Assembly: GCA_016198905.1 (NCBI GenBank)
Contig: JACQHR010000032.1
Location: forward strand, 10,390 to 74,389
Length of the DNA stretch: 64,000 bases
Source of the DNA: Candidatus Omnitrophota bacterium
GTDB lineage: Bacteria; Omnitrophota; Gorgyraeia; Aquiviventales; Aquiviventaceae
Direction: 5' to 3'
Positions 16,404-46,263 of this stretch are shown here, piece after piece; positions within the stretch are counted from its first letter, which is position 1; each line of letters starts with the position of its first letter. Under the pieces are notes generated by a model. It did no database searches and was not told the origin of the DNA. It saw only the letters and a program-made list of their open reading frames with translations. The translations under genes and the position numbers were made by a program.

Positions 16404-16422
16404 GTGAAGGGTGTGGGGCGCG

Positions 16423-18579: not shown

Positions 18580-18810
18580 ATGAGCAGCGACACACCGGTG
18601 ACATTCCGCTACGAGCCGAAGCACTGCGCGTTGTTGGGCAAACACGTATGGGCGATTCAGGCGTGTCAGGCCGATGGCACGTGGAAGATCGTGAACTGTC
18701 TGGATAAAGACGAGTCGTGTTTTGCGCTGGAGTGCGCGTTTACCAGCGATCATGGTGCGTGGCCCTACCCAAAGGCCACGAGCGGGCAAGCCTCCAAACG
18801 CGGAGTGTAA
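18580..18810 (+). CDS. Small Cys-rich hypothetical protein (76 aa)
   Basis: RBS ggagg lies 6 nt before ATG 18580. Five Cys in HCALLGKHVWAIQACQADGTWKIVNCLDKDESCFALECAF. Confidence 0.45.
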   Translation: MSSDTPVTFRYEPKHCALLGKHVWAIQACQADGTWKIVNCLDKDESCFALECAFTSDHGAWPYPKATSGQASKRGV

Positions 18811-18856
18811 CGGCGCTTGAGCGCCCCGCCCTCTGCTACCGACGGACGGAACCTCG

Positions 18857-20935: not shown

Positions 20936-20936
20936 G

Positions 20937-23301: not shown

Positions 23302-23395
23302 AGCCCATCCCCACACCTCCTCGAATCGCTCCAGATTATCTATATGATTGATATCATGGTGTCTTATTTCGCAGTAAGATACCGTAACTTCCAAA

Positions 23396-31483: not shown

Positions 31484-32008
31484 ATGAGGGAGCGTCTCTT
31501 GTTGCTTGTGGGCCTTGCGGTGCTGGTGGGTGCTGCGCTGTATGCGGCTCGAGAACGCGCGCGCCAGGCCCCGCTGGTCGTCCAGCCCTCCATCCCGTTT
31601 CCCCACAAGACCCACGTGGACGCTGGATTGACGTGCACGACCTGCCATGCGACCGCCGACAGCCAGTCCTTTGCGGGTCTTCCCGCTGTGCGCGACTGTT
31701 TGGACTGCCATGCCGCGGTCGGCGCCGACACACCCCTCCTTGCTCAGGTCACACCACAGCTTGAGCAAGCCGCGTCGCGCAAAGAAGAGCTGCCCTGGAA
31801 GCAGGTCTATCAAGTGCCTGCGCATGTGTACTTCTCGCATCAGCGTCATGTGACGCTAGCACGGTTAGACTGTGAGGTCTGTCATGGTCAGGTTAAGAAG
31901 CTGACGAGCCCCGTCGTGCGGCAGGATGTTGCCATCAGCATGGAACGCTGTGTGACGTGCCATCAACAACAGCGGGTTACGGCCGACTGCTTGGCCTGCC
32001 ATCGGTAG
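31484..32008 (+). CDS. Membrane-anchored pentaheme cytochrome c (ActA/QrcA-like)
   Basis: N-terminal TM helix. Five CXXCH motifs (CTTCH, CLDCH, CEVCH, CVTCH, CLACH). 174 aa. Confidence 0.8.
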   Translation: MRERLLLLVGLAVLVGAALYAARERARQAPLVVQPSIPFPHKTHVDAGLTCTTCHATADSQSFAGLPAVRDCLDCHAAVGADTPLLAQVTPQLEQAASRKEELPWKQVYQVPAHVYFSHQRHVTLARLDCEVCHGQVKKLTSPVVRQDVAISMERCVTCHQQQRVTADCLACHR

Positions 32009-32012
32009 CGAG

Positions 32013-34277
32013 ATGGAAGTCACGCGCCGCGCTTTTCTGCAGTTGACCGGCCTGATGGCCGGCACCACAGGGGCCTTCGAGCGCTTCATCAGGCATCGGT
32101 TGATGGGGCTGCCGGCGCCTGCAGACGATGTATTACTGACACCGCACGCTCCTGAGCAGTGGCTGCCCTCTGTGTGCCAACTCTGTCCCGCAGGCTGTGG
32201 GGTGGCCGCGCGGGTGGTCAACGGTCGGGTGGTGAAGCTTGAAGGCCTGCCCGCGCATCCGATCAACCAAGGCAGCCTCTGTCCCCGTGGCCTGGCAGGG
32301 CTGACTGAACTCTACCACCCCGACCGCCTGCTGCAGCCGATGAAGCGCATCGGCGAGCGCGGCGAGGGCCGGTTTGAGCCCATCGGCTGGGACGAGGCGA
32401 TCCGCACACTCATCGATCGTCTGCGCACGCTGCATCAGCGTGGCGAGTCGCATCGAGTGGCTTGGCTCTCCGGTCATACCGCGGGCATCGCACCGCAACT
32501 CATCGAGCGGTTCTTGCGCGGGTATGGCGCTACCCGGCATTTCGTCCTGAGCCCTCCGACCGGAGAGCTGCCTGTTGATGCCTTTCATATGATGGTCGAT
32601 TGGCAGGGGCAGATGCTCTACGATCTCGCCCAAGCCACCCTCATCCTGTCCTTCGGGATGGATTGGCTGCAGGCGTATCCCTCGCCTGTTGAGGCTTCGC
32701 GCGCGTATGGGCATCTTCGTCGAGGCCAGCCGGATCGCCGCGTGCGCGTGGTCCAGATTGAGCCGCGTCTGTCGGTGACCGCGGCCAAAAGCGATGAATG
32801 GCTCCCTGTGCGTCCGGGCCAAGAAGGATGGCTGGCCTTAAGCATGGCGCATGTCTTGATCCGTGACCGGCTCTTTCATGAGCGATTCGTGCAGGACTCC
32901 GCAGTGGGCTTCGAGGAATTTTCGCGCTTCGTCGAATCGCACGCGTCCCCTGAGCAGGTGGCCGAGCCCACCGGCATCCCGGCAGAGACCATCGTTCGCG
33001 TGGCCACGGAGTTTGGACTAAGACGAGGGCTGGCTGTGGGCAGCCGCGCCGATGCGCTGACGCAGTGGGCCGTGATGAGCCTCAACGGGTTGGTCGGCAA
33101 CATTGATGCGCGCGGCGGCATCTTGCGACGGTGGGAACCGGAAGCGCTTTCGCTGCCGGCGGCGGTGACGCCAACCGATGCGCCGATGCTGCCAACCGAT
33201 GCGCAGGCCCTGCCGGCGTTGCTTCAATCGCAACAGCCGTCTCCCATCGAAGTCCTGGTGCTCTCGTCCGCTAATCCGTGTTTTCTCAGCCCTTCGCCGT
33301 CACGGTGGGCTGACGCCTTCAAGGCGGTGCCATGGATTGTCAGTTGCACCGCATTCCTCGATGAGACAGCGCTGCACGCGGATTTGCTGTTGCCGACGGC
33401 CACCGCGCTTGAGCAGTGGCAGTATGCGCCGACCACCGCAAGCGATGGAACGGTCGTGGCGACGATCTGCCGTCCTGTGCTGGCCCCGCGCAACGAGGCG
33501 CGCGGGCTGCCGGATCTCATCCTGCAACTGGCCCAGGCGTTCGGTCCGCCGCTTGACAACGCGCTGCCCTGGCATTCCTTGGAGCAGCTCGTGATGGATC
33601 GCCTCCATGCCCTGTACGACGCCAAGGTAGGCTTGCTGTTGCCACCGATCAGCGTGCCTGGGACGCCAGCGCCTTCCGTGGAGAAGCCGGCGATGAACGT
33701 GGAGGAGTTCGGCAAGGAGCTGCTCGCGCGGGGCGGCCTCCTCTGGCCGGCAGAGGCGTCCCCCTGGCCTGAGTTTCGGACTCCATCGCGTCAATTCGAG
33801 TTTGTTCCCCGCGCGATTGCTGAGCGCCTGAAGGCCTCACCAACGCTGTTTCCGACGGAGGAGTCGGCTGCGGCAGCCGGCTTTCCCTTGCAGCTCTACC
33901 TCTATTCACCGCTGGCGTTCCTCAACGGCTACGGCGCGCACCTGCCGCATCTGCAACAGATTGCCGGCAGCCAACTCCATGAGGCGTGGGTCACCTGGGC
34001 AGAAATCCACCCGAGCACCGCAGGCGCACTTGGCATCCGCGATGGCGAATCGATCTGGGTTGCCTCGGCCCACGGGCGCATCACCGTCAAGGCGCGCTGG
34101 TCCGAAGGGATCCAGCCGTCCGTCATTGCCATCCCGCTTGGGCTGGGGCACACCGCGCACGGCCGTTGGGCCCAGGGTATTGGAGAAAATCCGGCCTGCT
34201 TGATCGAGGCGAAGCGCGATCCACAGACGGGCCAACCACTTTGGCAGGGGACATGGGTGAAAGTCTGGAAGGCGTGA
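32013..34277 (+). CDS. Molybdopterin-oxidoreductase-fold subunit (ActB1/QrcB/PsrA-like), Tat-exported
   Basis: Twin-arginine signal MEVTRRAFLQLTGLMAG. N-terminal Fe-S motif CQLCPAGCG...C. 754 aa. Whether a Mo cofactor is bound cannot be judged by eye. Confidence 0.8.
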   Translation: MEVTRRAFLQLTGLMAGTTGAFERFIRHRLMGLPAPADDVLLTPHAPEQWLPSVCQLCPAGCGVAARVVNGRVVKLEGLPAHPINQGSLCPRGLAGLTELYHPDRLLQPMKRIGERGEGRFEPIGWDEAIRTLIDRLRTLHQRGESHRVAWLSGHTAGIAPQLIERFLRGYGATRHFVLSPPTGELPVDAFHMMVDWQGQMLYDLAQATLILSFGMDWLQAYPSPVEASRAYGHLRRGQPDRRVRVVQIEPRLSVTAAKSDEWLPVRPGQEGWLALSMAHVLIRDRLFHERFVQDSAVGFEEFSRFVESHASPEQVAEPTGIPAETIVRVATEFGLRRGLAVGSRADALTQWAVMSLNGLVGNIDARGGILRRWEPEALSLPAAVTPTDAPMLPTDAQALPALLQSQQPSPIEVLVLSSANPCFLSPSPSRWADAFKAVPWIVSCTAFLDETALHADLLLPTATALEQWQYAPTTASDGTVVATICRPVLAPRNEARGLPDLILQLAQAFGPPLDNALPWHSLEQLVMDRLHALYDAKVGLLLPPISVPGTPAPSVEKPAMNVEEFGKELLARGGLLWPAEASPWPEFRTPSRQFEFVPRAIAERLKASPTLFPTEESAAAAGFPLQLYLYSPLAFLNGYGAHLPHLQQIAGSQLHEAWVTWAEIHPSTAGALGIRDGESIWVASAHGRITVKARWSEGIQPSVIAIPLGLGHTAHGRWAQGIGENPACLIEAKRDPQTGQPLWQGTWVKVWKA

Positions 34278-34300
34278 TCCCACCGCCGACAGGAACTGCG

Positions 34301-35107
34301 ATGGTTTCACGACGCGCGCTGCTTCAGCGCGCCGTCGTCGCGGCCGGCGCGTTGGTGTTCCTTCGGCGCGCACCGACTGCGCAGGCGGCATCCGGTCAAG
34401 AGGCGGACGCGCCGCGTCCCACCCATACGCCTCGGTGGGGCATGGTGATCGACCTTGATAAATGCACCAGCTGTCAGGCATGCGTCGTCGCCTGCTGGGC
34501 CGAGAATAATCAGCCGTTACCCGGTCCTGAAGCGCACCGAGCGGGTCGGGTGATTGAATGGATGAAACTCCTCTCCGTTCACGAGGGCAGCTATCCCCGC
34601 GTCCGCCAGCGCCTCCTGCCGATCCCTTGCCAACAGTGCGATCAGCCTCCCTGCACCACGGTCTGTCCGGTCTTCGCCACGTACAAGAACCCCGAAGGGC
34701 TCGTTGCCCAGATCTACCCGCGCTGCATCGGCTGCCGCTACTGCGTCAACGCCTGTCCCTACACCTGCAAGTTCTTCAACTGGTCCGAAGCCCGGTGGCC
34801 CGCCTCCATGGCCCAGGAGCTCAACCCTGATGTGTCGGTCCGGCCCAAAGGGGTCACGGAGAAATGCACCTTCTGCCACCACCGGCTCCAGCGAGCCAAA
34901 GAACAGGCTGCGAGCGAAGGCAGGGTGCTGCAGGCAGGCGACTATGTGCCGGCCTGTATGCAAGCGTGTCCGGCCCAAGCCATCGTCTTCGGCGACCTGA
35001 ATGATCCGGCGAGCGACGTCTCCAAGGCGCAAGACAATCCGCGCCGGTTTCGGCTCCAAGAGGAACTCGGGACGGAGCCGAAAGTCACGTATCTCTCTGA
35101 GGCATGA
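34301..35107 (+). CDS. 4x[4Fe-4S] ferredoxin-like subunit (ActB2/QrcC/PsrB-like), Tat signal
   Basis: ATG 34301 gives MVSRRALLQRAVVAAGA (Tat signal). Clusters CTSCQACVVAC, CQQCDQPPCTTVCP, CIGCRYCVNACP and CTFCHHR...CMQACP. The ORF-track start 33986 overlaps the upstream gene. Confidence 0.85.
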   Translation: MVSRRALLQRAVVAAGALVFLRRAPTAQAASGQEADAPRPTHTPRWGMVIDLDKCTSCQACVVACWAENNQPLPGPEAHRAGRVIEWMKLLSVHEGSYPRVRQRLLPIPCQQCDQPPCTTVCPVFATYKNPEGLVAQIYPRCIGCRYCVNACPYTCKFFNWSEARWPASMAQELNPDVSVRPKGVTEKCTFCHHRLQRAKEQAASEGRVLQAGDYVPACMQACPAQAIVFGDLNDPASDVSKAQDNPRRFRLQEELGTEPKVTYLSEA

Positions 35108-36477
35108 GCATGGAACAACCTCGAGATATCGCGTCTGATATTGTGACGCCCATGATTCGTTGGCCGCGCGGCTACGGTGTGTTCGTGGGCTGTCTTCTCG
35201 CTGTGATCGCCTTCGCCGCGTACGCGTGGACGCAGCAACTCCGCTTCGGTCTGGGGGTCACCGGGCTGACCCGTCCGGTCTTTTGGGGCCTCTATATTAC
35301 CAACTTCGTTTTCTTCATCGGCATCAGCCATGCCGGGACGCTCATTTCCGCCATCCTGCGCCTCTGCCGAGCCGAGTGGCGCCGGCCGATTACGCGCATG
35401 GCCGAGGCCATCACGGTCCTCGTCCTGTTCATTGGGGCAGGGAACGTCATCATGGATCTGGGCCGTCCTGATCGAGCGCTGAATGTCATCCTCCATCCCA
35501 ATTTCCGGTCGCCCCTGTTATGGGACATCACCAGCATCACCACGTACCTGACCGCGAGCATGCTGTACCTCTACCTGCCGCTCATTCCAGATCTGGCCAT
35601 CCTTCGCGATCGGCTGCCCAGGCGACGGTGGTTCTATCGACCCTTAGCGCTTGGCTGGACCGGGACACCGCAACAGCACCGGCGGCTTGAGCGGGCCATT
35701 GCCATCATGGCGGTGGTCGTGATCCCGATCGCGATCTCGGTCCATACGGTAGTCTCCTGGGTGTTTGCCATGACCATCCAGCCGATGTGGCACAGCACGA
35801 TCTTCGGACCGTATTTTGTGGCCGGCGCGATCTTCTCCGGCATCGCCGCCCTCATCGTGGCCATGGCGATCTTGCGCAAGGTGTACCATCTGGAGGCGTA
35901 CCTCAAGCCCATCCATTTCAATAACCTGGGGATTCTGCTGCTCGTCATGGCCTGTCTGTGGCTGTACTTCACGTTTGCCGAGTACCTGACCACCTTCTAT
36001 GGGCATCAACCGGAGGAGATGGCCGTCTTCTGGACGAAGATCACTGGTCCGTTCGCGCCCTATTTCTGGGCCATGGCCGTGTGCTGTTTCGTGATCCCGG
36101 TGATCCTCCTGGGTATCCCGCGATTGCGGACGATTTCCGGCACCGTGGCGGCTTCAGGCTTCATTCTTATTGGGATGTGGTTGGAGCGGTTCCTCATCGT
36201 CGTGCCCTCCCTCATCAATCCCCGGTTGCCCTTTCCAGGGGGTGTCTACCACCCGAGTTGGGTGGAGCTGGCGATCACCGCAGGAGCCTTTGCGACCTTC
36301 CTCCTCTTCTATTGTCTCTTCATCAAGGTGTTCCCGATCATTTCCATCTGGGAGGTTCAGGAAGGACAGGAGCGCGGCGTGGACGAGACGGTGGAACGGT
36401 TGAAGACCTACCTTCCCACCGCAGTATCCCAGCCACCGCAGCCGGCGACATCCAGATTTCAGACCAAGTGGAGCTGA
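35104..36477 (+). CDS. NrfD/PsrC-family polytopic quinone-interacting subunit (ActC/QrcD-like)
   Basis: 4-nt ATGA overlap with the FeS gene. 457 aa with ~10 TM helices, matching ActC in size. Confidence 0.8.
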   Translation: MSMEQPRDIASDIVTPMIRWPRGYGVFVGCLLAVIAFAAYAWTQQLRFGLGVTGLTRPVFWGLYITNFVFFIGISHAGTLISAILRLCRAEWRRPITRMAEAITVLVLFIGAGNVIMDLGRPDRALNVILHPNFRSPLLWDITSITTYLTASMLYLYLPLIPDLAILRDRLPRRRWFYRPLALGWTGTPQQHRRLERAIAIMAVVVIPIAISVHTVVSWVFAMTIQPMWHSTIFGPYFVAGAIFSGIAALIVAMAILRKVYHLEAYLKPIHFNNLGILLLVMACLWLYFTFAEYLTTFYGHQPEEMAVFWTKITGPFAPYFWAMAVCCFVIPVILLGIPRLRTISGTVAASGFILIGMWLERFLIVVPSLINPRLPFPGGVYHPSWVELAITAGAFATFLLFYCLFIKVFPIISIWEVQEGQERGVDETVERLKTYLPTAVSQPPQPATSRFQTKWS

Positions 36478-36998
36478 TGCGTCTGAGACCCGTGACGTGG
36501 TGCACGGTGATGGTCGGTGCGTTCAGCCTCTGGGCCGCCCTGCGGTCTGATGCCCAGGAATCTCTCCGCGGGGGGACGCAGACCGAGGAAGAAGTCAAGG
36601 AAGCGGCCAAGCAACCGTATGCGAATGACCTGGGTTCTGATACTATTGATGTCTCGAGCTATCCACCTCAGATGCAGCGAGCCCACGTCCTGTTTTCGCA
36701 GAAATGCTCCCGTTGTCATACGCTGGCTCGACCCATCAATTCCCAATGGGCCACCGCGGTCTTCTGGGAACACTATGTGAAGCGGATGTGGCGCAAGCCG
36801 GGCAGCGGCATCAACGGAGCGGAGGCGAAACAGATCTGGGAATTTCTTGTCTACGACTCCCAGGTGCGCAAACTCGATCATCGAGAGGTATTCAAGGCGT
36901 TCCGAAGACGACTGCTGGAGGAGTTCAGGCAGCGTTACCCCGCCAGGTTCCAGGAGCTCTACGGTGGCGCGGAAGAAGACGCCGTGCGACTCTGGTAA
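36477..36998 (+). CDS. Monoheme cytochrome c (ActE-like position)
   Basis: ATG 36477 overlaps the ActC-like stop (gcTGATGc). Signal/anchor MRLRPVTWCTVMVGAFSLWAAL. One CSRCH motif. The track ORF 35958..36998 is an artefactual 5' extension. Confidence 0.7.
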   Translation: MRLRPVTWCTVMVGAFSLWAALRSDAQESLRGGTQTEEEVKEAAKQPYANDLGSDTIDVSSYPPQMQRAHVLFSQKCSRCHTLARPINSQWATAVFWEHYVKRMWRKPGSGINGAEAKQIWEFLVYDSQVRKLDHREVFKAFRRRLLEEFRQRYPARFQELYGGAEEDAVRLW

Positions 36999-37017
36999 AT
37001 ACGGGAGGTGATTCTTA

Positions 37018-37464
37018 GTGATGTGTCCCAGGCAACGGATCAGCCGACGGGAGTTTTTGCGGTACCTGCTCAAGAGCGGTGGGGTTGCATTCCTGGGGGC
37101 GGCGATCTATCCCATTGCGCGGTACCTCTACCCCCCGCGGGGGGTCGAGTCGTCCGTCTCCACCGTCGTGGCCGCAACGCTCGGGGAGCTGGCGGTGAAC
37201 ACAGCCAAGATCTTCCGGTTCGGCAGCCGTCCGGGACTCCTGATCAACACCCCGCAGGGTGAACTCAAAGCGTTTTCCGCGGTGTGCACGCACCTCAATT
37301 GCACCGTGCAATACGAGCCGGACAACAGCCTGATCTGGTGCGCCTGCCACAACGGCAAGTATGACTTAAACGGCCAGGTGATTTCCGGCCCGCCTCCCCG
37401 GCCGCTTGAGGCCTATCAGGTGAACGTCCGGGGCGAGGAGATCCTCGTCTCGAAGCCGGCGTAA
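37018..37464 (+). CDS. Rieske [2Fe-2S] protein
   Basis: Tat signal RISRREFLRYLLKSGG. Rieske boxes CTHLNCTV and CACHNGKYD. Confidence 0.9.
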   Translation: MMCPRQRISRREFLRYLLKSGGVAFLGAAIYPIARYLYPPRGVESSVSTVVAATLGELAVNTAKIFRFGSRPGLLINTPQGELKAFSAVCTHLNCTVQYEPDNSLIWCACHNGKYDLNGQVISGPPPRPLEAYQVNVRGEEILVSKPA

Positions 37465-37468
37465 CTCG

Positions 37469-38542
37469 ATGAGGCCCCTCGAACGCCTTCGAGCCTTCTT
37501 TCGCGAACGCTACCCCCTCGGCGGGCTGGCAGAGTTCGCCACGCACAAGACCGTCCCCGTCCACCGCCACAGCTTCTGGTACTACTGGGGCGGGATGACC
37601 CTCGCCCTTATCGGCATGCAGATCGCCAGCGGCGTGCTGCTCCTGCTCTACTACCGTCCTTCCGCCCAGGAGGCCTTCGAATCGGTCCGCTTCATCATGA
37701 CCAAGGTGCAGTTCGGATGGCTGGTGCGATCGGTCCACGCGTGGGCGGCGAACCTGGTCATTTTCTCGGCCATGGTGCATCTGGCCAGCGTCTTTTTCCT
37801 CAAGGCCTATCGGCCCCCGCGTGAGCTGACTTGGGTGACCGGGGCGGTGCTTCTGTTCCTCTTGATGGGGTTCGGGTTTACGGGCTATCTCTTACCCTGG
37901 AACACGCTGGCCTTCTTCGCCACAAAAGTCGGCACAGAGATCGCCGGCGTCGTGCCAGTCATGGGGCCGATCATACAGGTGTTCCTGCGCGGCGGCAGCG
38001 ATGTCGGCGATGTAACGCTCACGCGGTTTTTCTGGCTGCATATCGCGATTCTGCCGCTGATGGTGGTCGGTGTCATCGGGCTGCATCTGGTGATGGTGCA
38101 GCTCCAAGGGATGAGCAAGCCGCTTACCGTGCGCGAGGAGCGCTCCATCCCGTTTTTTCCGAATTTCTTCCTGCGGGACTTGATCGCCTGGGCGCTCATC
38201 CTTGGAGCGGTCCTGTCGGTCAGCGTGTACTGGCCTGCGACGCTGGGAGAGAAGGCGGATCCCTTTGCGCCGACCCCGGCAGGCATTCAGCCGGAATGGT
38301 ATTTTTTGTGGATGTTTCAGACGCTGAAGCTGGTGCCGGGACATGTCTTCGGGCTCGAAGGGGAACTGGTCGCCGTCGGGGCCACAGGAGTCGCCGGCCT
38401 GGCCTTGCTCTTGGTGCCATGGCTTGACCGGCCGGCGAGGCGCGGACGATCTCATTGGATGGTGCTCGCCGCGGGGATCCTGGCTGTGCTGTATGTCGTC
38501 GGCATGACGGGCTACGCGCTCTGGATCGGTCATCGGCCATGA
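37469..38542 (+). CDS. Cytochrome b (fused b6 + subunit IV-like)
   Basis: 357 aa with ~8 TM helices. Contains FWYYWGGMTLAL, His-bearing helices, and the Qo-site PEWY motif (GIQPEWYFLWMFQTLK). Confidence 0.9.
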   Translation: MRPLERLRAFFRERYPLGGLAEFATHKTVPVHRHSFWYYWGGMTLALIGMQIASGVLLLLYYRPSAQEAFESVRFIMTKVQFGWLVRSVHAWAANLVIFSAMVHLASVFFLKAYRPPRELTWVTGAVLLFLLMGFGFTGYLLPWNTLAFFATKVGTEIAGVVPVMGPIIQVFLRGGSDVGDVTLTRFFWLHIAILPLMVVGVIGLHLVMVQLQGMSKPLTVREERSIPFFPNFFLRDLIAWALILGAVLSVSVYWPATLGEKADPFAPTPAGIQPEWYFLWMFQTLKLVPGHVFGLEGELVAVGATGVAGLALLLVPWLDRPARRGRSHWMVLAAGILAVLYVVGMTGYALWIGHRP

Positions 38543-39837
38543 CGAGCCGCATGATGCGGGCGAGCCTTGGCCTGGTCTTCTGGATGGCCGCGCTTCGGTT
38601 CGGGGTGGTGGTCGAGGCGGCCAATAGCTGTGTCGAGTGTCATCAGCAATTTGAATCCGGAGCATCGGCGCCGACTCAGGTGATGGCGCATGATGTCCAC
38701 ATCCAACGCGGCCTCTCCTGCTCGGACTGCCACGGCGGCGATCCCGCCGCTACCGAGGCGACATCGGCAATGGATCCGGCCAAGGGATTCATCGGCCGCC
38801 CCGCGCGAGCCGAAATCCCACAGTTCTGCGCACGTTGCCACGCCGATCCTGCCTACATGCGCAAGTACAACCCCAACCTCCCCACCGACCAGTACGCCAA
38901 GTACCTCACGAGCCAGCACGGCAAGCGCCTGGGCAGCGGAGATGCAGACGTGGCCGTGTGCACGAGCTGCCACGGCGCTCATGGGATTCGATCCAAGAAA
39001 GACCCGCAATCACCGGTGTATGCGATGAACATCCCGGGCACCTGCGCTGTGTGCCACACAAACGCGAGGCTCATGGAGCGCCACGGGCTGCCGACAAATC
39101 AGTACGCAGACTATTCGCAGAGTGTGCATGGCCAGGCGCTGCTCGTGCGCGGCGATCGGGCCGCGCCCCACTGCGCCAGTTGCCACGGTTCGCATGAAGC
39201 CTCGCGGCCGAAGGTGGTCGCCATCGGGAATATCTGCGCCCAGTGCCATGGTCTCACACGCGACCTATTTACCAAGAGCCCCCACAAACGGGCCCATGAG
39301 GTGCTGGGGCTTCCGGAATGCGAGGTGTGTCACGGCAACCATCTGATCCGCAAGCCGACGGATGAGATGCTGGGAACCGGATCGGATGCGGTCTGCGTCA
39401 ACTGTCATGAGCCCGGCTCCGCCGGCTACGTCACCGCCCAGCAGATGCGCGAAGCCATTGAACGCCTAAATACGCAGATGACCGGCGCCCAGGTGACCGT
39501 CGCGCAGGCCGCACAGCTTGGGATGGAGGTGGCCGATGCGGAGTTCGCCCTCAACCAGGCGACGGCGCAACTCACCCAGGCACGGACCTATGTGCATTCG
39601 TTCTCCGCCTCAACAATGGAGCCCATCGCCGAGGAGGGCATCCGTTATGCTCGGCAGGCCGAAACTCAGGGTCAGCAGGCGATTCACGAGTTCGGGTTCC
39701 GCCGCCATGGATTATGGATGACCTTAGCGATTCTGTTCTTGGTGGTCGGCGGGCTCGCGCTCTTCATTCGAGATCTTGAACGACCGAACTCCTCAGGCAA
39801 GCAGGATCCGCCGGCACCGCCTCACGGACCTGCCTGA
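38539..39837 (+). CDS. Nonaheme cytochrome c with C-terminal coiled region and TM anchor
   Basis: ATGA overlap with the cytochrome b stop. Nine CXXCH motifs (CVECH, CSDCH, CARCH, CTSCH, CAVCH, CASCH, CAQCH, CEVCH, CVNCH). C-terminal TM helix WMTLAILFLVVGGLALFI. Confidence 0.85.
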   Translation: MTSRMMRASLGLVFWMAALRFGVVVEAANSCVECHQQFESGASAPTQVMAHDVHIQRGLSCSDCHGGDPAATEATSAMDPAKGFIGRPARAEIPQFCARCHADPAYMRKYNPNLPTDQYAKYLTSQHGKRLGSGDADVAVCTSCHGAHGIRSKKDPQSPVYAMNIPGTCAVCHTNARLMERHGLPTNQYADYSQSVHGQALLVRGDRAAPHCASCHGSHEASRPKVVAIGNICAQCHGLTRDLFTKSPHKRAHEVLGLPECEVCHGNHLIRKPTDEMLGTGSDAVCVNCHEPGSAGYVTAQQMREAIERLNTQMTGAQVTVAQAAQLGMEVADAEFALNQATAQLTQARTYVHSFSASTMEPIAEEGIRYARQAETQGQQAIHEFGFRRHGLWMTLAILFLVVGGLALFIRDLERPNSSGKQDPPAPPHGPA

Positions 39838-41364
39838 TTGTCCGCGATGACGCATAGCGATCACCCTAAGTCTCCAAGTCTCCTGCGCAATCCCGTCAGT
39901 TTTGTGGGCATTGTGGTTGCGGCGATGAGCACCGCGTTCGGCCTGCCGCTCATGTTTCTCGATATGGTGAGCCGGCGGACGCATCCGTATCTTGCCGTGC
40001 TCATTTATCTCGTCTTGCCATTTGTGGCGACGGGCGGGGTCGGGCTCATTGTGTTTGGGGCGCTGTGGGAACGATGGCGGAGACGGCGCCGGCCAGAACT
40101 GATCGTGCCGCCGCTGCCGCAGATTGACTTGAATCAGCCTGCGCACCAGGCAGCCGTGGTGGCAGCGGTGACCGCCACCATGGTGATCGTGATCCTCTTG
40201 TCGATCACCGGCTATCGGGCGTACCACTTCACCGAGTCGGTCAAGTTCTGCGGCTTGGTCTGCCACCAGGTCATGAAACCGGAGTACACGGCCTATCAGT
40301 ACTCGCCGCACGCGCGGGTGGCCTGCACGCAGTGCCACGTCGGACCGGGGGCGGACTGGTTTGTGCGCTCGAAGCTGAGCGGTCTGTATCAGGTGTACGC
40401 GGTGACCACTCACCGCTATCCGCGGCCGATCGAGACCCCGGTCAAGAGTTTACGGCCGGCGCAAGAGACGTGCGAGCAATGCCACTGGCCGGCGAAATTC
40501 TTCGGCGCGCAACAGAAGACGTTTACGCATTACCTTTCGGATGAGGCGAATAGTCCTTGGCAGATCCAGATGCTGATCAAGGTCGGCGGCGGCAATCCGG
40601 CCACCGGCGGGGCCTCCGGCATCCATTGGCATATGAACATTGCCAAAACGATTGAGTATGTTGCCGCGGATAAACAGCGCGAAGTGATTCCCTGGGTGCG
40701 GGTGACCGAGCCCGGTGGGCACGTGAGGGTGTACCAAAGTACGGAGGTACCGCTCTCCCCGGCGCAAGTGACCGCGGCTACCCCGCGGCAGATGGATTGC
40801 GTGGACTGCCACAACCGGCCCTCGCACATCTACACGCCGCCGGATCGCGCCCTCGATGCGGCATTGGAACAAGGGCGCATTGACTCGTCGCTGCCGTATG
40901 TCAAGCGCGAGGCGGTGCGCTTGTTGGCGGGCACGTACCGCAGCGAGGCGCAGGCCATGGCTGCGATCCGCACAGGCCTCACACGTTTCTATGAGACGAC
41001 CTATCCGGATATGTGGCGACAGCGGCAGGCGGACATCCAGCGCGCCGCCGAGGAAACGGCGAAGGTGTTTGCCCGCACCATCTTTCCTGAAATGAAGGCC
41101 GACTGGCGCGTGCATCCGAACCACATCGGCCATCGCAACACGGATGGGTGTTTTCGTTGTCACGACGGCCAGCATGCGAGCGCCGACGGCCACGTGATCA
41201 CGAAAGACTGCAACGCCTGCCACACGATCCTCGCACAGGGCGCTCCGGCTACCCTGCAGGGCCAACCGTTGCGGGAGCAGCCCTTCCAACACCCCGTGGA
41301 TATGGGGATGGACGTCACCGAGCAAAAATGCAGTCTCTGTCACAACGGCACGACCGGGCTCTAA
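39838..41364 (+). CDS. Inner-membrane multiheme cytochrome c, NapC/NirT-related (ImcH-like architecture)
   Basis: Three N-terminal TM helices. An FCGLVCH motif (CX3CH) stands where NapC/NrfH proteins have FCxxCH. Six CXXCH motifs follow (CTQCH, CEQCH, CVDCH, CFRCH, CNACH, CSLCH). 508 aa. The start is TTG 39838 or ATG 39847. Confidence 0.75.
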   Translation: MSAMTHSDHPKSPSLLRNPVSFVGIVVAAMSTAFGLPLMFLDMVSRRTHPYLAVLIYLVLPFVATGGVGLIVFGALWERWRRRRRPELIVPPLPQIDLNQPAHQAAVVAAVTATMVIVILLSITGYRAYHFTESVKFCGLVCHQVMKPEYTAYQYSPHARVACTQCHVGPGADWFVRSKLSGLYQVYAVTTHRYPRPIETPVKSLRPAQETCEQCHWPAKFFGAQQKTFTHYLSDEANSPWQIQMLIKVGGGNPATGGASGIHWHMNIAKTIEYVAADKQREVIPWVRVTEPGGHVRVYQSTEVPLSPAQVTAATPRQMDCVDCHNRPSHIYTPPDRALDAALEQGRIDSSLPYVKREAVRLLAGTYRSEAQAMAAIRTGLTRFYETTYPDMWRQRQADIQRAAEETAKVFARTIFPEMKADWRVHPNHIGHRNTDGCFRCHDGQHASADGHVITKDCNACHTILAQGAPATLQGQPLREQPFQHPVDMGMDVTEQKCSLCHNGTTGL

Positions 41365-43220
41365 TCCCCCTAGGGTTGGCGCTGACGCTGGGCGTCGTGG
41401 CGGCGGCCACAGCCGCCGGCGCCGAGAACATCGATAACCCCACGTGTCTGGCCTGCCATGGTGATGCGGCGAGCCCGCGATTTGTAGATGGCCAGAAATT
41501 CTCGGCATCGGTCCACAGCGCGTTGACCTGCACCAGCTGCCACACAGACATCAGCAGCGTGCCGCATGCCGTGCCCGCACAGCCTGTCAGCTGCAGCCAG
41601 TGTCACACCTTGGAAGCCGAGGTCTACCTGCGCAGCGACCACGGGCAGGCGGTTCATCGCGGAGTGACGGAGGCCGCGTCCTGCCGTGATTGCCACGGCA
41701 ATGCTCACACGCTGCTTTCCGTCCACGACCCGGCCTCGCCTGTGACGCGAGCCAACATTCCCCAAACGTGCGCGCAATGCCACGGCAAGACACAGGACAT
41801 GGCCAAATTTCGCTTGGCGCAGAAAACTCCCATCCGCTCATATCTCGAGAGCGTCCATGGTTTGGCCTTCCAAAAGGGCAATACCGCCGCAGCCGTCTGT
41901 ACCGACTGCCATGGCTCGCACGATTTGCACCGGGCCACGAATCCCCAATCCAAGCTCTACTGGCAGGTGATTCCTGCTACGTGCGGCAAGTGTCATGAGA
42001 ACATTCGGGAAACGTTTAGGCGCAGCATCCACGGGCAGGCGGTCGCAACCGGCAAGCGCGATGCCCCCGTCTGTACCGATTGTCACGGCGAGCATTCCAT
42101 CGACGCGGTCAAGCAAGCCACGTCGAAAGTGTTTCCCTCGAATATCCCCGAGACCTGCGGCCAGTGCCATGCGGCTGAGCGGATCATCACCAAGTACCAA
42201 CTGCCCTCTCACGTCGTCGATACGTATATGAAGAGTTTCCATGGCCTCTCGCTGCAATTGGGATCGCTACGGGCGGCGAATTGCGCCTCGTGCCATGGAG
42301 CGCACGACATCTTGCCGTCCAATGACCCGCGCTCCGCCGTGCATCCGAATAATCTGGCGAAGACCTGCGGCCAGTGTCATCCCGGCGTCAGTCTCCAGGT
42401 CACCAGAGGCCAGATCCATTCAGGCACGCAACCCGGTTTGGAGCACCGCGCGGTGGGATGGGTGCGCCGCCTCTACCTCATCCTCATCGTAACAGTTGTC
42501 GGCGGGATGTTGCTGCACAACTTCCTGGATTTTCGCAAGAAGCTGCAAGTGCATCGCCAGCGAATGACCGCGGTGTCCGGGCCGCTGCGCATGACCCTGA
42601 ATGAGCGCATCCAGCATGCGGTGCTGGCCATCGCATTCATCGCGCTGGCCTACACGGGATTTGCGCTGAAACATCCGCAGGCATGGTGGGCCAGCCCGTT
42701 TGTGGGTCGCGTTGACTGGCGCAGCCTGAGCCATCGCGGAGCCGCACTCGTCTTCTGTGTGCTTGGAGCCTACCATATCTGGTTTGTGTGCCGCACGGAC
42801 CGGGGACGCAAGCACCTGCGCGCACTCTTGCCCATGCGTTCGGATCTGATTCAATTCGGACAGATGCTCGGCTACGACGTGGGCCTGCGGGGGCAACGGC
42901 CCATGATGGGGCACTACAGCTATGTGGAAAAAATCGAATACTGGGCGTTGGTATGGGGCTCCATGGTCATGGTGGTGACCGGCGCCTTGATGACTTGGCA
43001 AGACTGGACGCTGCGGTTATTTCCCAAGTGGATTTTTGATGTCATCACGTCGATCCATTACTACGAGGCGATCCTGGCGTGTCTGGCGATTCTGCTCTGG
43101 CATGGCTACTTCACCATGTTCGATCCCGACGAGTATCCGATGAAATGGACCTGGCTCACCGGGCGGCCTTCGGAATCAGATGAACACCACCGCAAGGAAG
43201 ACGAGCCGGCGCAGCACTGA
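41328..43220 (+). CDS. Fusion of an 11-heme cytochrome c domain to a diheme cytochrome b (FdnI/HydC-like) membrane domain (CbcL-like)
   Basis: ATG 41328 gives signal LIPLGLALTLGVVAAATAAGA. Eleven CXXCH motifs. The C-terminal ~230 aa have 4-5 TM helices with conserved His (ERIQHAVLAIAFIALAYTGF..., YHIWF, IHYYEAILACLAILLWHGY). Overlaps the upstream gene by 37 nt. Confidence 0.8.
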   Translation: MQSLSQRHDRALIPLGLALTLGVVAAATAAGAENIDNPTCLACHGDAASPRFVDGQKFSASVHSALTCTSCHTDISSVPHAVPAQPVSCSQCHTLEAEVYLRSDHGQAVHRGVTEAASCRDCHGNAHTLLSVHDPASPVTRANIPQTCAQCHGKTQDMAKFRLAQKTPIRSYLESVHGLAFQKGNTAAAVCTDCHGSHDLHRATNPQSKLYWQVIPATCGKCHENIRETFRRSIHGQAVATGKRDAPVCTDCHGEHSIDAVKQATSKVFPSNIPETCGQCHAAERIITKYQLPSHVVDTYMKSFHGLSLQLGSLRAANCASCHGAHDILPSNDPRSAVHPNNLAKTCGQCHPGVSLQVTRGQIHSGTQPGLEHRAVGWVRRLYLILIVTVVGGMLLHNFLDFRKKLQVHRQRMTAVSGPLRMTLNERIQHAVLAIAFIALAYTGFALKHPQAWWASPFVGRVDWRSLSHRGAALVFCVLGAYHIWFVCRTDRGRKHLRALLPMRSDLIQFGQMLGYDVGLRGQRPMMGHYSYVEKIEYWALVWGSMVMVVTGALMTWQDWTLRLFPKWIFDVITSIHYYEAILACLAILLWHGYFTMFDPDEYPMKWTWLTGRPSESDEHHRKEDEPAQH

Positions 43221-43241
43221 ACCATCTGCCGGAGAAGGGCA

Positions 43242-44195
43242 ATGGCTGCAAGATCGAAACATTCCGTTAGTCATCCGTTGGCAGCGTGCGTGTTCTTGAG
43301 CATTCTTTTTTCCGCGACCTCCCTATTAAGAGCGGAGCCTGCCGTATCTCAAAAGAGGCCTGAGTTTGCAGGGCCTGAAACGTGCGCGGGCTGTCACGCG
43401 GCTGAGTACGAAGAATGGAAACACTCGCGCCATGCGGGCGCATTCGGCGAGCCTTTCGCTTCTTATTGGAACGCGCACGGCAAGAGTGCCGAATGCCTCG
43501 GCTGCCATACGACAGGTTTTGATTCGCCCAGCGGCCAATTTGCTTTTGAAGGGGTGAGCTGCGAATCTTGCCACGGGCCCTACCACGAGGGGCATCCCGA
43601 AGCGGGTGTGACCATGCACCTGGCTACGGATTCATCGGCGTGCGCCACCTGCCACCGCCAGACGTTTCTTGAGTGGCAACTCAGCAAGCACGGGCAAAAG
43701 GGCATCCGCTGTTTTGATTGCCACCGCGTGCACCAACAAGGGCTTCGCCACCCGAGCGTTGAAGCGCAGTGCGGCGCCTGCCATGCCGAACGACTTCAGG
43801 ATTTTGCGCACGCCACCCATCACGCATCCGGATTGACGTGTGCGACCTGCCATCTGCCCGAACCGAAGACCACAGGCGTGGGGGGCACGGGTGCCGCCAG
43901 CCACACGTTCCTCGTCGGTGCGGAAACATGTGCCGCGTGCCATGAGGAGACCGTGCACAAGAGCCAGAAGATGCAGCAGTTGGAGTCGGCGGTCACGCGG
44001 TTAAGCACCCAGCCCTCAGCAGAAGAATTGGCGCGGCTCCAAGAGGAAGTCAGGCAGTTGGAATTTGTTGCGGATGTGCAGCGCGCCGGACGCGCGCGGA
44101 TGATACTGCTGGCGTTATTGATTGGCGTGGCTTTCGGCAGTCTCATGGTGCTCATTTCCCTGGGGCGTTCGCGCAAAGACGGCGGGCCATCCTGA
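43242..44195 (+). CDS. Octaheme cytochrome c with C-terminal TM anchor
   Basis: Eight CXXCH motifs (CAGCH, CLGCH, CESCH, CATCH, CFDCH, CGACH, CATCH, CAACH). C-terminal TM helix MILLALLIGVAFGSLMVLISL. Confidence 0.85.
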   Translation: MAARSKHSVSHPLAACVFLSILFSATSLLRAEPAVSQKRPEFAGPETCAGCHAAEYEEWKHSRHAGAFGEPFASYWNAHGKSAECLGCHTTGFDSPSGQFAFEGVSCESCHGPYHEGHPEAGVTMHLATDSSACATCHRQTFLEWQLSKHGQKGIRCFDCHRVHQQGLRHPSVEAQCGACHAERLQDFAHATHHASGLTCATCHLPEPKTTGVGGTGAASHTFLVGAETCAACHEETVHKSQKMQQLESAVTRLSTQPSAEELARLQEEVRQLEFVADVQRAGRARMILLALLIGVAFGSLMVLISLGRSRKDGGPS

Positions 44196-45094
44196 TGGAT
44201 TCCAGAATGACCCGCAGGACATTTTTACGCCATTCAACCGTCGGCGCACTCGGTGCTTGCGCCGTCTGCGCCGGCGTGGCGGACGGTTCAATCGCCGCAT
44301 CGGCTGCAACCGATGCCACACGCATCGGGACGCTGGTTGACGTGACGCGCTGTATTGGCTGCCGCGCGTGCGTGCGCGCCTGCAATCAACGCAACGGGTT
44401 GCCGCAGCCTGAGAAGCCGAGCACCGTCTGGAACGGGCCGGTGGAGGAGCTTAACTTCGGCCGCTGGACGACGGTGAATCTGCAGGGTACGCCGGCGAAC
44501 GGTGCAGCCGTGCCGGTGAAGCGCCAGTGCATGCACTGTCTTGAGCCAGCCTGTGTTTCCGTTTGCCCCGTCGCAGCACTTCAGCAGTTACCCAATGGCG
44601 TGGTGATGTATCGAAAAGAGCGCTGCATCGGCTGCCGCTACTGCATGTTTGCTTGTCCCTTTGGGATCCCGAAGTTCGAGTGGGAGGCCAGCCTTGATCC
44701 CGAAATCGGCAAGTGCCAATTTTGCGCGCAACACGCGGTGTTTACCGGGCCTGCGTGCGCGCAAGCGTGCCCGACCGGAGCGCTGAAGTTCGGCTCCCGT
44801 CAGGCGCTCCTGGCGGAAGCCAAGGCGCGCATTCATGTGCGCCCTGAGCGCTATCGGGATCATGTCTATGGAGAGCACGAGGCAGGTGGCACCGCCTGGC
44901 TGTACTTATCGAGCAGGTCTTTTTCGGATTTAGGTTTCAACACCCAACTGCCAAGGTTCGGGCTTCCACGGTTAACCTGGGTGGCCCTCAAGCTGGTGCC
45001 CGGGGTCGTGATCGCCCTTGTGATTGTCTTAACCTCGGTTTCTTTCAGGATGGGGCGTCTCGCACAGCAGGCGGCCGTGCATGATCGCACATGA
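44195..45094 (+). CDS. Tat-exported 4x[4Fe-4S] protein with C-terminal TM helix (HybA/NrfC-like)
   Basis: TGATG stop/start overlap. Tat signal MTRRTFLRHSTVGALG. Clusters CIGCRACVRAC, CMHCLEPACVSVCP, CIGCRYCMFACP and CQFC...CAQACP. TM helix LKLVPGVVIALVIVLTSV. Confidence 0.85.
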   Translation: MDSRMTRRTFLRHSTVGALGACAVCAGVADGSIAASAATDATRIGTLVDVTRCIGCRACVRACNQRNGLPQPEKPSTVWNGPVEELNFGRWTTVNLQGTPANGAAVPVKRQCMHCLEPACVSVCPVAALQQLPNGVVMYRKERCIGCRYCMFACPFGIPKFEWEASLDPEIGKCQFCAQHAVFTGPACAQACPTGALKFGSRQALLAEAKARIHVRPERYRDHVYGEHEAGGTAWLYLSSRSFSDLGFNTQLPRFGLPRLTWVALKLVPGVVIALVIVLTSVSFRMGRLAQQAAVHDRT

Positions 45095-46263
45095 TTGAAG
45101 TTTTTTTCATCCTGGCCTATGCGATTATTGTGGCCGCTTTTGTGCGCTCCAAGACCCATCTGCGCTTGCATACGCGCTTGGAAGTGCTGCTGCTGGCGTC
45201 CGCTGCTTTGGCGGTGGGGCTGTATGCGCTGACCCAGCGCATGACCCAGGGTTTGGGAGCGACCACACACCTTTCGGATAGCTTTCCGTGGGGTATTTGG
45301 ATCAGTGTTGATTTATGCGGCATTGCGTTGGCTTCCGGCGGATTTATCCTCGCGGGCATTGTCCACCTGTTTCGCGTGCATCGGCTGGAGCCCATTTTGC
45401 GCCCCACAGTGTTAACCGCCTTTATCGCGTACCAATTAGTTGCGGCCATTCTGGTTTTGGATTTAGGCAGGCCGCTGCGCTTTTGGCACCCGCTGGTCAT
45501 GTGGCAGCACCATTCGGTGATGTTTGAGATCACCTTGTGCCTTGCGTTGTACACGGTGGTTCTCGCTCTGGAATTCAGTCCTGTGCTTTTCGAATACCTG
45601 GGCTTCCATAGGGCAGTCGAGGCTCTGCAGAAGATGACGTTGCCGGTAGTCATGGCGGGAGTCATCCTTTCAACTCTGCACCAGTCATCCTTCGGGTCGC
45701 TGTTTCTGATTGTGCCGCAGAAGTTATCGCCTTATTGGTACACGCCGATCCTGCCCATCCTGTTTCTGTTGTCTGCTGTCTGCGCGGGATTAGGGGTAGC
45801 ACTGCTTGAGTGCGTCCTGTTCGAGCGGGCGGCAGGCGGCGAGCGCTTGGATGCCGGCATTGTGCCGATGCTGGCCCGCTGGACCAGTCGAGCGCTCATG
45901 CTCTATGTGATCGTGCGGCTGACGGACTTACTGGTTCGCGGCAGCTGGAGGGCGGTGTTCCAGCATCCTTGGCTGGACGCTTCGTTGGCGGTTGAGATCA
46001 TCGCCGGAAGCCTTCTTCCGGCGCTCTGGCTTGGCCGCATCGCCAAGAGGAATGCGCATCAGGCCGCTGCCGCAGCGGTGACTGTGCTAGGGGGAGTTGT
46101 CTGGCACAGGCTCAATGTGTCCTGGTTCGGGCTCATCCCGGCATCAGGAGTCTTTTATGTGCCGAGCTGGCTTGAGATCGCCATCACCCTTGCCTTGGTG
46201 ATGATCGGCATACTGGTGTTTATTGCTGCGGCGCAATTATTGCCGGTTTTTCCTCGCCGATAA
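45091..46263 (+). CDS. NrfD/HybB-family polytopic membrane subunit (second copy)
   Basis: ATGA overlap with the FeS gene. 390 aa with ~10 TM helices. Confidence 0.8.
   Translation: MIEVFFILAYAIIVAAFVRSKTHLRLHTRLEVLLLASAALAVGLYALTQRMTQGLGATTHLSDSFPWGIWISVDLCGIALASGGFILAGIVHLFRVHRLEPILRPTVLTAFIAYQLVAAILVLDLGRPLRFWHPLVMWQHHSVMFEITLCLALYTVVLALEFSPVLFEYLGFHRAVEALQKMTLPVVMAGVILSTLHQSSFGSLFLIVPQKLSPYWYTPILPILFLLSAVCAGLGVALLECVLFERAAGGERLDAGIVPMLARWTSRALMLYVIVRLTDLLVRGSWRAVFQHPWLDASLAVEIIAGSLLPALWLGRIAKRNAHQAAAAAVTVLGGVVWHRLNVSWFGLIPASGVFYVPSWLEIAITLALVMIGILVFIAAAQLLPVFPRR

Follow-up and report, generated by a model that had tools for sequence, protein, structure and literature searches.

A 13-gene quinone-linked block in an Omnitrophota genome as a candidate set of four separable redox modules

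We analyze a tightly packed block of 13 genes (g1-g13) for multiheme cytochromes and quinone-interacting membrane proteins in a 64,000-nucleotide stretch of DNA (hereafter, "the window") from a Candidatus Omnitrophota bacterium (GenBank assembly GCA_016198905.1, contig JACQHR010000032.1, positions 10,390 to 74,389 of the forward strand). A preliminary description of the window had presented the block as one operon whose products form a single electron hub between the periplasm and the quinone pool. We observe that the corresponding locus is a mosaic in related genomes, where four of the 13 genes are kept nearly everywhere and the others are carried by some relatives and not by others. We therefore consider it reasonably likely that the block consists of four separable membrane redox modules, packed tightly and probably co-transcribed, each of which links periplasmic multiheme cytochromes to the quinone pool.

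Gene content and layout of the block

The gene map is based on a listing of open reading frames (ORFs) and on refinement of their start positions. It places 13 genes on the + strand between 31484 and 46263, including genes for iron-sulfur (FeS) proteins, for proteins exported by the twin-arginine translocation (Tat) route and for proteins with transmembrane (TM) helices:

g1, 31484-32008, + strand: ActA/QrcA-like pentaheme cytochrome, membrane-anchored
g2, 32013-34277, + strand: MopB-fold subunit, Tat-exported, without molybdenum (Mo) ligand, ActB1/QrcB-like, FS0 [4Fe-4S] motif kept
g3, 34301-35107, + strand: four-cluster FeS subunit, Tat-exported, ActB2/QrcC/DsrO-like
g4, 35104-36477, + strand: NrfD-family 10-TM quinone-interacting subunit, ActC-like
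g5, 36477-36998, + strand: monoheme cytochrome c, class-I-like, in the ActE position
g6, 37018-37464, + strand: Rieske 2Fe-2S protein of bc/b6f type, GTG start
g7, 37469-38542, + strand: cytochrome b, b6 and subunit-IV parts fused
g8, 38539 or 38551 to 39837, + strand: nonaheme cytochrome c with C-terminal TM anchor (NCBI start 38551)
g9, 39847-41364, + strand: ImcH-family heptaheme inner-membrane cytochrome
g10, 41328-43220, + strand: CbcL/MtrH/MtoC-family fusion protein, 11-heme cytochrome c joined to a di-heme b membrane domain
g11, 43242-44195, + strand: octaheme cytochrome c with C-terminal TM anchor
g12, 44195-45094, + strand: HmcB/HybA-like FeS protein, Tat-exported, C-terminal TM anchor
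g13, 45091-46263, + strand: HmcC/HybB-like NrfD-family membrane subunit

The junctions from g1 to g13 measure, in order, +4, +23, -4, -1, +19, +4, -4 (or +8, with the later start of g8), +9, -37, +21, -1 and -4 nt; several are ATGA or TGATG overlaps, and the g9/g10 overlap spans 37 nt. The ORF calls with start refinement thus bear out the co-directional genes and the gaps of -37 to +23 nt reported in the preliminary description, and searches of Pfam, NCBIfam and the sequences of the Protein Data Bank (PDB) confirm its domain calls for all 13 genes. Its count of 40 c-type hemes also holds: the six cytochromes g1, g5, g8, g9, g10 and g11 have 5 + 1 + 9 + 6 + 11 + 8 = 40 CXXCH motifs, to which a CX3CH motif in g9 adds a forty-first predicted c-heme, besides four b-hemes. 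The motif CTFCH in g3 is a coincidence in an FeS protein and no heme site. Five quinone interfaces are present, as had been claimed. Two of them are of the NrfD family, and the other three are cytochrome b, NapC/NirT-type and FdnI/HydC-type b, which makes four structural families.

The packed block probably begins one gene before g1, with the following gene:

30571-31452, + strand: SPFH/Band-7 (HflK-like) membrane scaffold gene (Pfam Band_7, E = 2.6e-33)

A strong ribosome-binding site (GAGGGGG) lies in front of this gene, 31 nt separate it from g1, and the resulting 14-gene block is flanked by the largest gaps of the region (248 nt before the SPFH gene and 181 nt before ResB). A shared direction is not distinctive in itself, because 18.8-49.9 kb of the window lies almost entirely on the + strand. 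A scan for promoter and terminator consensus sites gave no excess over shuffled sequences (3 versus 4.3; 17 versus 12.3), which is consistent with one transcription unit and is no proof of one. The idea of an operon is compatible with the tight packing and with the scan, but its start at 31484 is probably one gene too late. Within the block, GC content at third codon positions is lower in g11-g13 (0.66-0.70) than in g6-g9 (0.75-0.83), a weak hint of a separate history that is too weak to prove recent transfer.

Comparison with related loci

A profile search with g8 of one-genome-per-species contigs yielded 76 loci, on which all window proteins were then located by tblastn; species-representative loci are numbered L001-L073. 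The full 13-gene order occurs at no locus outside the window. Among Omnitrophota, g6-g9 are kept nearly everywhere, within a backbone that reads HemA ... [Cyc2 and/or an MtrA-like cytochrome with a putative porin] - g6-g9 - ResB/CcsA. Around this constant core lie two variable slots, one between the porin and Rieske genes and one between the ImcH and ResB genes.

L081, whose g8 is 80 % and whose flanking genes are 75-91 % identical, is the closest relative and is without 9 of the 13 genes: like L002, it has Cyc2-p199-g6-g7-g8-g9-ResB-CcsA and nothing more, p199 being a 199-aa protein. In L003, L010, L013 and L017 the order is MHC-porin-g6-g9-g10-ResB-CcsA, where MHC stands for the MtrA-like multiheme cytochrome; L004 has MHC-porin-g6-g9-ResB-CcsA, with no g10, and L006 has MHC-porin-g6-g9 on a contig that ends inside g9. 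Larger additions are seen in three loci. The first, L077, reads MHC-porin-SPFH-g1-(small helix-turn-helix gene)-g2-g5-g6-g7-g8, and the second, L011, has a g10-g13 block that adds g11-g13 and a CbcL paralog of ~19 hemes. In the third, L083, the run Cyc2-p199-MHC-porin-g6-g9 is followed by other cargo between ImcH and ResB (12854-20869), consisting of two NHL-repeat proteins, four multiheme cytochromes and a 672-aa protein, which may be a second cytochrome-porin conduit. Of the species-representative loci, 40 have 5 kb or more on each side; none of these has g1-g5 beside the core, and g11-g13 occur in one of the eight close relatives among those 40 (L011).

Because the same locus (HemA ... ResB-CcsA) is mosaic in this way, the window is the union of modules that relatives carry apart. 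Judged by gene order, then, the block is a conserved four-gene core, g6-g9, with optional ACIII-like (alternative complex III), CbcL and Hmc-like add-ons, and is not one fixed machine.

Resemblance of the modules to known complexes

The core starts with a Rieske/cytochrome b/nonaheme triad. Its Rieske protein, g6, matches Pfam Rieske (E = 2.2e-12) and the PetC TM anchor (TM_PetC) and has the boxes CTHLNC...CACH, disulfide cysteines included. The cytochrome b, g7, matches Pfam Cytochrome_B (E = 1.2e-48), scores 219.7 bits against the NCBIfam model of cytochrome b6 and 204.4 bits against that of ExtP (cutoff 290), and has four His in b6-type spacing (VHAW...MVH, LHIA...GLH) together with a PEWY Qo motif; g8 has 9 CXXCH and a TM helix at residues 388-406. 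The three genes stand together in 65 of the 66 loci with enough upstream sequence, and these loci come from many phyla, with labels that include Omnitrophota, KSB1, Acidobacteriota, Verrucomicrobiota, Planctomycetota, Zixibacteria, Ignavibacteria, Bacteroidota, Gemmatimonadota and Chloroflexota, among others. A natural 741-aa fusion of cytochrome b and nonaheme cytochrome (P0115) supports the view that g7 and g8 are subunits of one complex. At another locus of the set (L034, 11713-16500, 'Ca. Calidihabitans tengchongensis'), the triad is followed by MopB-FeS-NrfD genes that are 28-41 % identical to g2-g4, which on these similarities is another independent pairing of a bc-type triad with a MopB-FeS-NrfD module.

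The fourth core gene, g9, encodes a 505-aa protein with TM helices at residues 20-38, 51-69 and 102-120, a CX3CH motif (CGLVCH) at residue 135 right after the third helix, and CXXCH motifs at 160, 209, 318, 435, 455 and 495. It thereby shows all four layout features of the ImcH family, namely 495-519 aa, three N-terminal TM motifs, a CX3CH beside the TM domain and six CX2CH (PMC6295460, Zhong and Shi 2018); family members are 31.5-100 % identical to ImcH of G. sulfurreducens, and the role ascribed to the family is that of a quinol oxidase serving extracellular acceptors of high potential (PMC6295460). Table S3 of that paper lists the Omnitrophica protein OGX39360.1 (A3C53_01135) as an ImcH homolog. 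This protein has 505 aa, its motif and TM positions are at most one residue from those of g9, and the next locus tag, A3C53_01140 (P0015), is 72 % identical to g8; orthologs of g9 were therefore already catalogued as ImcH family in 2018. In 26 species-representative loci, no more than 800 nt separate an ImcH-like gene from the triad; 25 loci with adequate flanks have no such gene. Omnitrophota and Ignavibacteria have the ImcH-like gene downstream of the triad; Verrucomicrobiota, Zixibacteria and Bacteroidota have it upstream. We found no paper describing a linkage of ImcH with Rieske/cytochrome b genes in the literature searched.

Two systems of Geobacter sulfurreducens invite comparison with the core. 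The first is ImcH itself, whose exact layout g9 shares, the assignment being made from this layout and the listed Omnitrophica ortholog. In Geobacter, however, the genes for ImcH and CbcL are unlinked, whereas g9 and g10 are adjacent and overlapping (37 nt) and follow the Rieske/cytochrome b unit. The second is the ext/Cbc6 cluster (GSU2930-2940, ExtHIJKL with ExtM, N, O, P, Q and S), in which a porin-like outer-membrane protein, multiheme cytochromes, a Rieske protein and a b6-like cytochrome b are encoded together (PMC5877670, PMC2825233), and against whose ExtP g7 scores 204 bits. The differences are that g7 stays under the ExtP cutoff (290 bits) and fuses cytochrome b with the subunit-IV part, that its partner g8 has 9 hemes versus the 10- and 12-heme cytochromes of Geobacter, and that the Geobacter cluster is without ACIII-like, ImcH, CbcL and Hmc-like genes.

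Genes g1-g5 are best described, from their sequence matches, as an ACIII-like unit with split ActB. The g1 protein has 5 CXXCH and an N-terminal TM helix, matches ActA chains in the PDB (96 bits, 8k9e_A; 70 bits, 6f0k_A) and scores 80.6 bits against NCBIfam QrcA (cutoff 180). Three Pfam molybdopterin oxidoreductase domains are found in g2, for which QrcB is the top NCBIfam match (313 bits, cutoff 440), and PhsA scores 261 bits; among solved structures, its best matches are ArrA, with 183 bits, and the thiosulfate/polysulfide reductase of Thermus, with 129 bits, and its match to ActB itself is weak (55-81 bits). The Mo-ligand motif of ArrA (HSSVCAEA) aligns with LSPPTGEL in g2, such that the ligand Cys is replaced by the Thr of SPPTGEL. 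Across 120 g2 homologs, this column is variable with no conserved Cys, Ser or Sec, and the FS0 CX2CX3C motif is conserved. Because the Mo-ligand residue is missing and the FS0 motif kept, g2 appears to be a cofactor-less scaffold of the QrcB/ActB1 kind. It follows from the missing ligand that g2 is no terminal reductase, and the statement that the block includes no terminal oxidase or reductase stands.

Of the remaining subunits, g3 scores 283.7 bits against QrcC (cutoff 400) and 196.7 bits against DsrO (cutoff 200). The g4 protein has ~10 TM helices in a hydropathy scan and matches ActC over its full length (248 bits, 6f0k_C; 242 bits, 6lod_C; 241 bits, 6btm_C), versus 49.3 bits for NCBIfam QrcD (cutoff 570). 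With its single CXXCH, g5 has weak matches only, to the SorB family (2e-5) and PscC c-551, and no ActE chain is among its PDB matches, even at E <= 1. No ActD or ActF genes were found in the block: g5 is the sole gene between g4 and g6, and g13 has no match among PDB sequences, ActF chains included.

The likeness to ACIII (ActABCDEF) thus lies in the strong match of g4 to ActC, in the ActA-like g1 and in a monoheme gene after the ActC-like gene; in addition, MopB-like g2 and FeS protein g3 are separate genes, as in the actAB1B2CDEF clusters of the iron oxidizer Ferriphaselus, where ActB is split (PMC4643136). Unlike ACIII, g1-g5 include no ActD or ActF, g5 has no detectable similarity to ActE, and g2 and g3 score best against QrcB and QrcC, with the FS0 cluster motif kept in g2. 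The QrcABCD menaquinone reductase of sulfate reducers has the gene order multiheme cytochrome c, cofactor-less MopB protein, FeS protein and NrfD protein (PMC6303296). The order of g1-g4 is the same, and QrcA, QrcB and QrcC are the best NCBIfam matches of g1-g3. However, all four equivalog cutoffs are missed (80.6/180, 313/440, 283.7/400 and 49.3/570), g4 is ActC-like rather than QrcD-like, and g5 is an extra monoheme gene.

The SPFH gene stands in front of g1 both in the window and in L077, and its product might be an organiser of membrane complexes. Where the window has a gap of 4 nt between g1 and g2, L077 has an 80-aa HTH_3 (XRE-type) gene (4674-4916). Only 4 homologs of g2 exceed 60 % identity in 5.8 billion proteins, versus more than 70 homologs of g8 at 60 % or above. 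On a distant metagenome contig (L080, 914-7374), a unit resembling g1-g4 comes right after a Cyc2-like gene (25 % identity) and a monoheme gene resembling g5, which by these matches is an independent Cyc2/ACIII-like association.

The third module is g10 (630 aa), with 11 CXXCH and a Ni_hydr_CYTB domain (PF01292) at residues 422-597 (E = 7e-13). All 18 homologs compared keep His397, 469, 577 and 592, whereas His430 is found in 17 of them and His483 in 16. A simple hydropathy scan (threshold 1.6) shows a signal anchor and three TM segments, versus about six in the family. The CbcL/MtrH/MtoC family comprises proteins of 416-1034 aa with an N-terminal multiheme c domain (3-23 CX2CH) and a C-terminal TM domain; g10 has this architecture and the conserved b-heme His residues, and Table S2 of the same study lists an 11-heme Omnitrophica homolog of CbcL/MtoC (PMC6295460). 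With CbcL of Geobacter it shares the architecture, but CbcL has 9 hemes (PMC2825233, Table 5) and g10 has 11. A second CbcL-family paralog of ~19 hemes stands beside the 11-heme form in L011 (13643-15460), L037 and L041 and matches a 910-aa Omnitrophica entry in Table S2 of PMC6295460.

Among relatives with a visible left flank, a small sample, g10 occurs only in loci that also have the MtrA-like cytochrome and putative porin, a co-occurrence reminiscent of MtoABC. MtoC is a CbcL-family protein that sits in the mtoAB clusters of iron oxidizers (PMC6295460). The Mto clusters of Gallionella, Sideroxydans and Dechloromonas (MtoA-D) likewise combine genes for a cytochrome of the MtrA family, a porin of the outer membrane and an inner-membrane cytochrome of the CbcL family. 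In the window, however, the putative porin has no detectable similarity to MtrB/MtoB, the MtrA-like protein has 8 hemes and not 10, and the bc-type unit stands between the conduit genes and g10.

In the last module, g11 has 8 CXXCH, a TM helix at residues 287-305 and a match to Pfam Cytochrome_C554 (E = 5.6e-14). The g12 protein scores 264 bits against HmcB (cutoff 420) and 222 bits against HybA (cutoff 263), and g13 scores 261 bits against HmcC (cutoff 550) and 249 bits against HybB (cutoff 450), with a Pfam NrfD match at E = 2.4e-21. The order of a membrane-associated multiheme cytochrome, an HmcB/HybA-like FeS protein and an HmcC/HybB-like 10-TM NrfD protein recalls Hmc and HybAB. In contrast to these, g11 has 8 hemes and not 16, the scores lie under the equivalog cutoffs, no hydrogenase is present, and HmcDEF were not found, there being no further genes between g13 and ResB. 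By its matches, the module is Hmc/HybAB-like but not Hmc. The Nhc/Ohc complexes of Desulfovibrio are related to modules of this type.

Flanking genes

The block is preceded by genes for two candidate outer-membrane conduits and followed by cytochrome c maturation genes:

25033-26259 (ORF from 24964; NCBI start 25033), + strand: Cyc2-family fused monoheme cytochrome-porin, called from motifs and AlphaFold2 (AF2) fold
26327-26926, + strand: conserved 199-aa protein (p199), adjoining Cyc2 in L081, L002 and L083
27034-28227, + strand: 8-heme periplasmic cytochrome, putatively of the MtrA/DmsE family, called from 8 CXXCH and NCBIfam scores
28241-30322, + strand: 693-aa putative outer-membrane porin, called from signal peptide, C-terminal Phe and adjacency
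46445-49869, + strand: ResB and CcsA, System II cytochrome c maturation (Pfam ResB E = 8e-32, Cytochrom_C_asm E = 1.5e-32)

By published criteria, a Cyc2 protein has 365 aa or more and a signal peptide, its only CXXCH follows PxFAR[Q/K][T/Y] and precedes PxL, and its cytochrome domain is fused to a 16-stranded beta-barrel (PMC8406198). The window protein, with 408 aa and the motifs AIPAFARKY-GVS-CNVCH-RPNV-PRL, has every one of these sequence features. Its AF2 model (pLDDT, the predicted local distance difference test, of 81.3) combines a small N-terminal heme domain with 16 strands, and in a comparison with solved (PDB) structures its best fold matches are 16-stranded porins, including OprP (2o4v) and OprO (4rjw). 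By sequence and modelled fold it is a genuine Cyc2, with predicted Fe(II) oxidase activity.

The adjoining p199 has no Pfam or NCBIfam match. The 8-heme cytochrome scores 153.6 bits against TIGR03508 (cutoff 192.2) and 156 bits against the GSU2203 family, with 8 hemes and not 10. The 693-aa protein has a signal peptide, no internal TM helix, the C-terminus ...SRTF and no Pfam or NCBIfam family match, and its single-sequence AF2 model (pLDDT 27.7) is unusable. In relatives its gene always directly follows the MtrA-like gene, and it is probably the porin partner of the 8-heme cytochrome. With Cyc2 and this candidate pair, the outer-membrane conduits that the preliminary description placed upstream of the block are indeed found there.

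ResB/CcsA form the right end of the locus in 11 relatives of the Omnitrophota lineage (L002, L003, L004, L010, L013, L017, L019, L081, L082, L083 and L084). Upstream of the island, 15363-24604 encodes NirK, a NirA-like siroheme enzyme, two radical-SAM proteins, NnrS and HemA. The copper nitrite reductase NirK (15363-16403) scores above its NCBIfam cutoff, and the stretch from the radical-SAM genes through NnrS to HemA is syntenic in L081. Near the left end of the window (33-2795) lies a 920-aa ORF with long low-complexity repeats rich in Ser, Asp and Asn (SSDNSNSS...).

Discussion

The four modules that we propose would be the SPFH protein with the ACIII-like unit g1-g5 (module A), the Rieske/cytochrome b6-like/anchored nonaheme unit g6-g8 with ImcH-family g9 (module B), the CbcL/MtoC-family fusion g10 (module C) and the Hmc/HybAB-like unit g11-g13 (module D). 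Modules A, C and D would be optional cargo in the two variable slots, all of it carried by this genome. Rather than building a single obligate complex, the modules would act as parallel, independent quinone:cytochrome c oxidoreductases suited to different potentials or directions. Their most likely role would be the handling of electrons from extracellular Fe(II), since the locus encodes a genuine Cyc2, whose place in the conserved backbone favours electron uptake, although we infer the direction by analogy. Flow in at least one module would be uphill, cytochrome c reducing quinone with energy from the proton-motive force. Published proposals for bc1, ACIII and MtoC in iron oxidizers include such uphill flow, and models combine Cyc2, a split-ActB ACIII and a reversed bc1 (PMC4643136). 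The remaining electrons would pass downhill to a terminal enzyme encoded elsewhere, for which NirK is one candidate.

Several points weigh against this proposal. Work so far implicates ImcH homologs in the oxidation of quinol by metal reducers alone (PMC6295460), which points to outward flow. The tight translational coupling and the SPFH scaffold gene could be a sign that the modules associate physically in this organism. Relatives may have lost modules, in place of a gain in this lineage. Finally, the organism is an uncultivated metagenome-assembled genome, and genes are all that the interpretation draws on.

The strongest competing explanation keeps the same modules and reverses the flow, so that they would serve as quinol oxidases whose electrons leave the cell by way of the MtrA-like cytochrome and putative porin and reduce Fe(III)/Mn(IV) outside it, as with ImcH and CbcL of Geobacter. 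It stays alive because ImcH has been associated with metal reducers, the only organisms from which ImcH is known. Membership of g9 and g10 in the ImcH and CbcL families and the MtrA/DmsE-family cytochrome and putative porin upstream speak for it as well, as does the up-regulation on Fe(III) oxide of the ext/Cbc6 cluster with its Rieske/cytochrome b core. However, the conserved backbone includes a Cyc2 with all published features, and Cyc2 marks Fe(II) oxidation; ACIII and bc-type complexes figure in models of iron oxidizers (PMC4643136), and CbcL-family members occur in iron oxidizers too, as MtoC (PMC6295460). On balance we regard outward flow as possible but clearly the less probable direction.

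A more speculative extension concerns the core. We tentatively suggest that the Rieske/cytochrome b6-like/nonaheme unit and the ImcH-family cytochrome may together form a widespread, undescribed four-subunit bc-type complex, in which ImcH would be a partner or a second quinone site and not a stand-alone quinol oxidase, and that the Omnitrophota locus may be a hot-spot where quinone modules are added to this core.

That all 13 products form one integrated periplasm-to-quinone hub or supercomplex working in both directions, as the preliminary description proposed, now seems unlikely. Junctions of -37 to +23 nt with several ATGA/TGATG overlaps, a scaffold gene at the head of the block and no excess of promoter- or terminator-like sites over shuffles would all suit such a hub. 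The hub is nevertheless unsupported because the 13-gene synteny is absent in relatives, an outcome that the same description had named beforehand as speaking against it. Among close relatives, this locus holds the modules in independent combinations: the nearest, L081, has g6-g9 only, g1-g5 adjoin the core in 0 of 40 loci, and sub-blocks are kept separately, SPFH-g1-g5-g6 in L077 and g10-g13 in L011. Furthermore, each module, taken alone, corresponds to a complete quinone-interacting complex of a known type.

Two further explanations fare worse still. It is very improbable that g2-g4 form an active molybdoenzyme of the Psr/Phs/Arr type, serving as terminal reductase for polysulfide, thiosulfate or arsenate: the ArrA, Thermus reductase and PhsA matches of g2 point that way, but its Mo-ligand position is not Cys, Ser or Sec and is not conserved as such across the 120 homologs, QrcB is its best NCBIfam match, and the partners g1 and g4 match ActA and ActC. 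A catalytic role for g2 was rejected for want of the Mo ligand. Least credible of all is an assembly chimera of co-occurring strains with different modules, which a metagenome-assembled contig that unites the architectures of its relatives might suggest, but most types of junction recur on independent contigs (up705-SPFH-g1...g5-g6 in L077, g10-g11-g13 in L011, Cyc2-p199-...-MHC-porin-g6 in L083), frames and overlaps are intact at all junctions, and only the g13-ResB junction is unique to the window.

The assertion that no described system joins all of these modules is uncontradicted in the literature searched, where we did not find five quinone-interacting subunits stacked in one block and where Omnitrophota with multiheme cytochromes or Cyc2 receive passing mentions only. 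It should be qualified by the partial precedents of the ext/Cbc6 cluster of Geobacter and of the Mto clusters. Every module is of a known kind; the combination is new.

Conclusions

In most accounts, Omnitrophota appear as small, host-dependent or fermentative cells. Lithotrophic or electroactive members of the phylum are suggested by a high-GC groundwater lineage that encodes Cyc2, a cytochrome paired with a putative porin, and as many as five quinone-linked modules. The mosaic locus offers a natural experiment that separates a core (Rieske/cytochrome b/nonaheme cytochrome and ImcH) from optional parts (ACIII-like, CbcL/MtoC-like and Hmc-like), and this split can inform models of the route that electrons take from extracellular iron to the quinone pool. 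The repeated linkage of ImcH with bc-type genes provides a testable hypothesis for the mechanism of ImcH, and the conserved four-gene core is a more promising lead than the 13-gene maximum.

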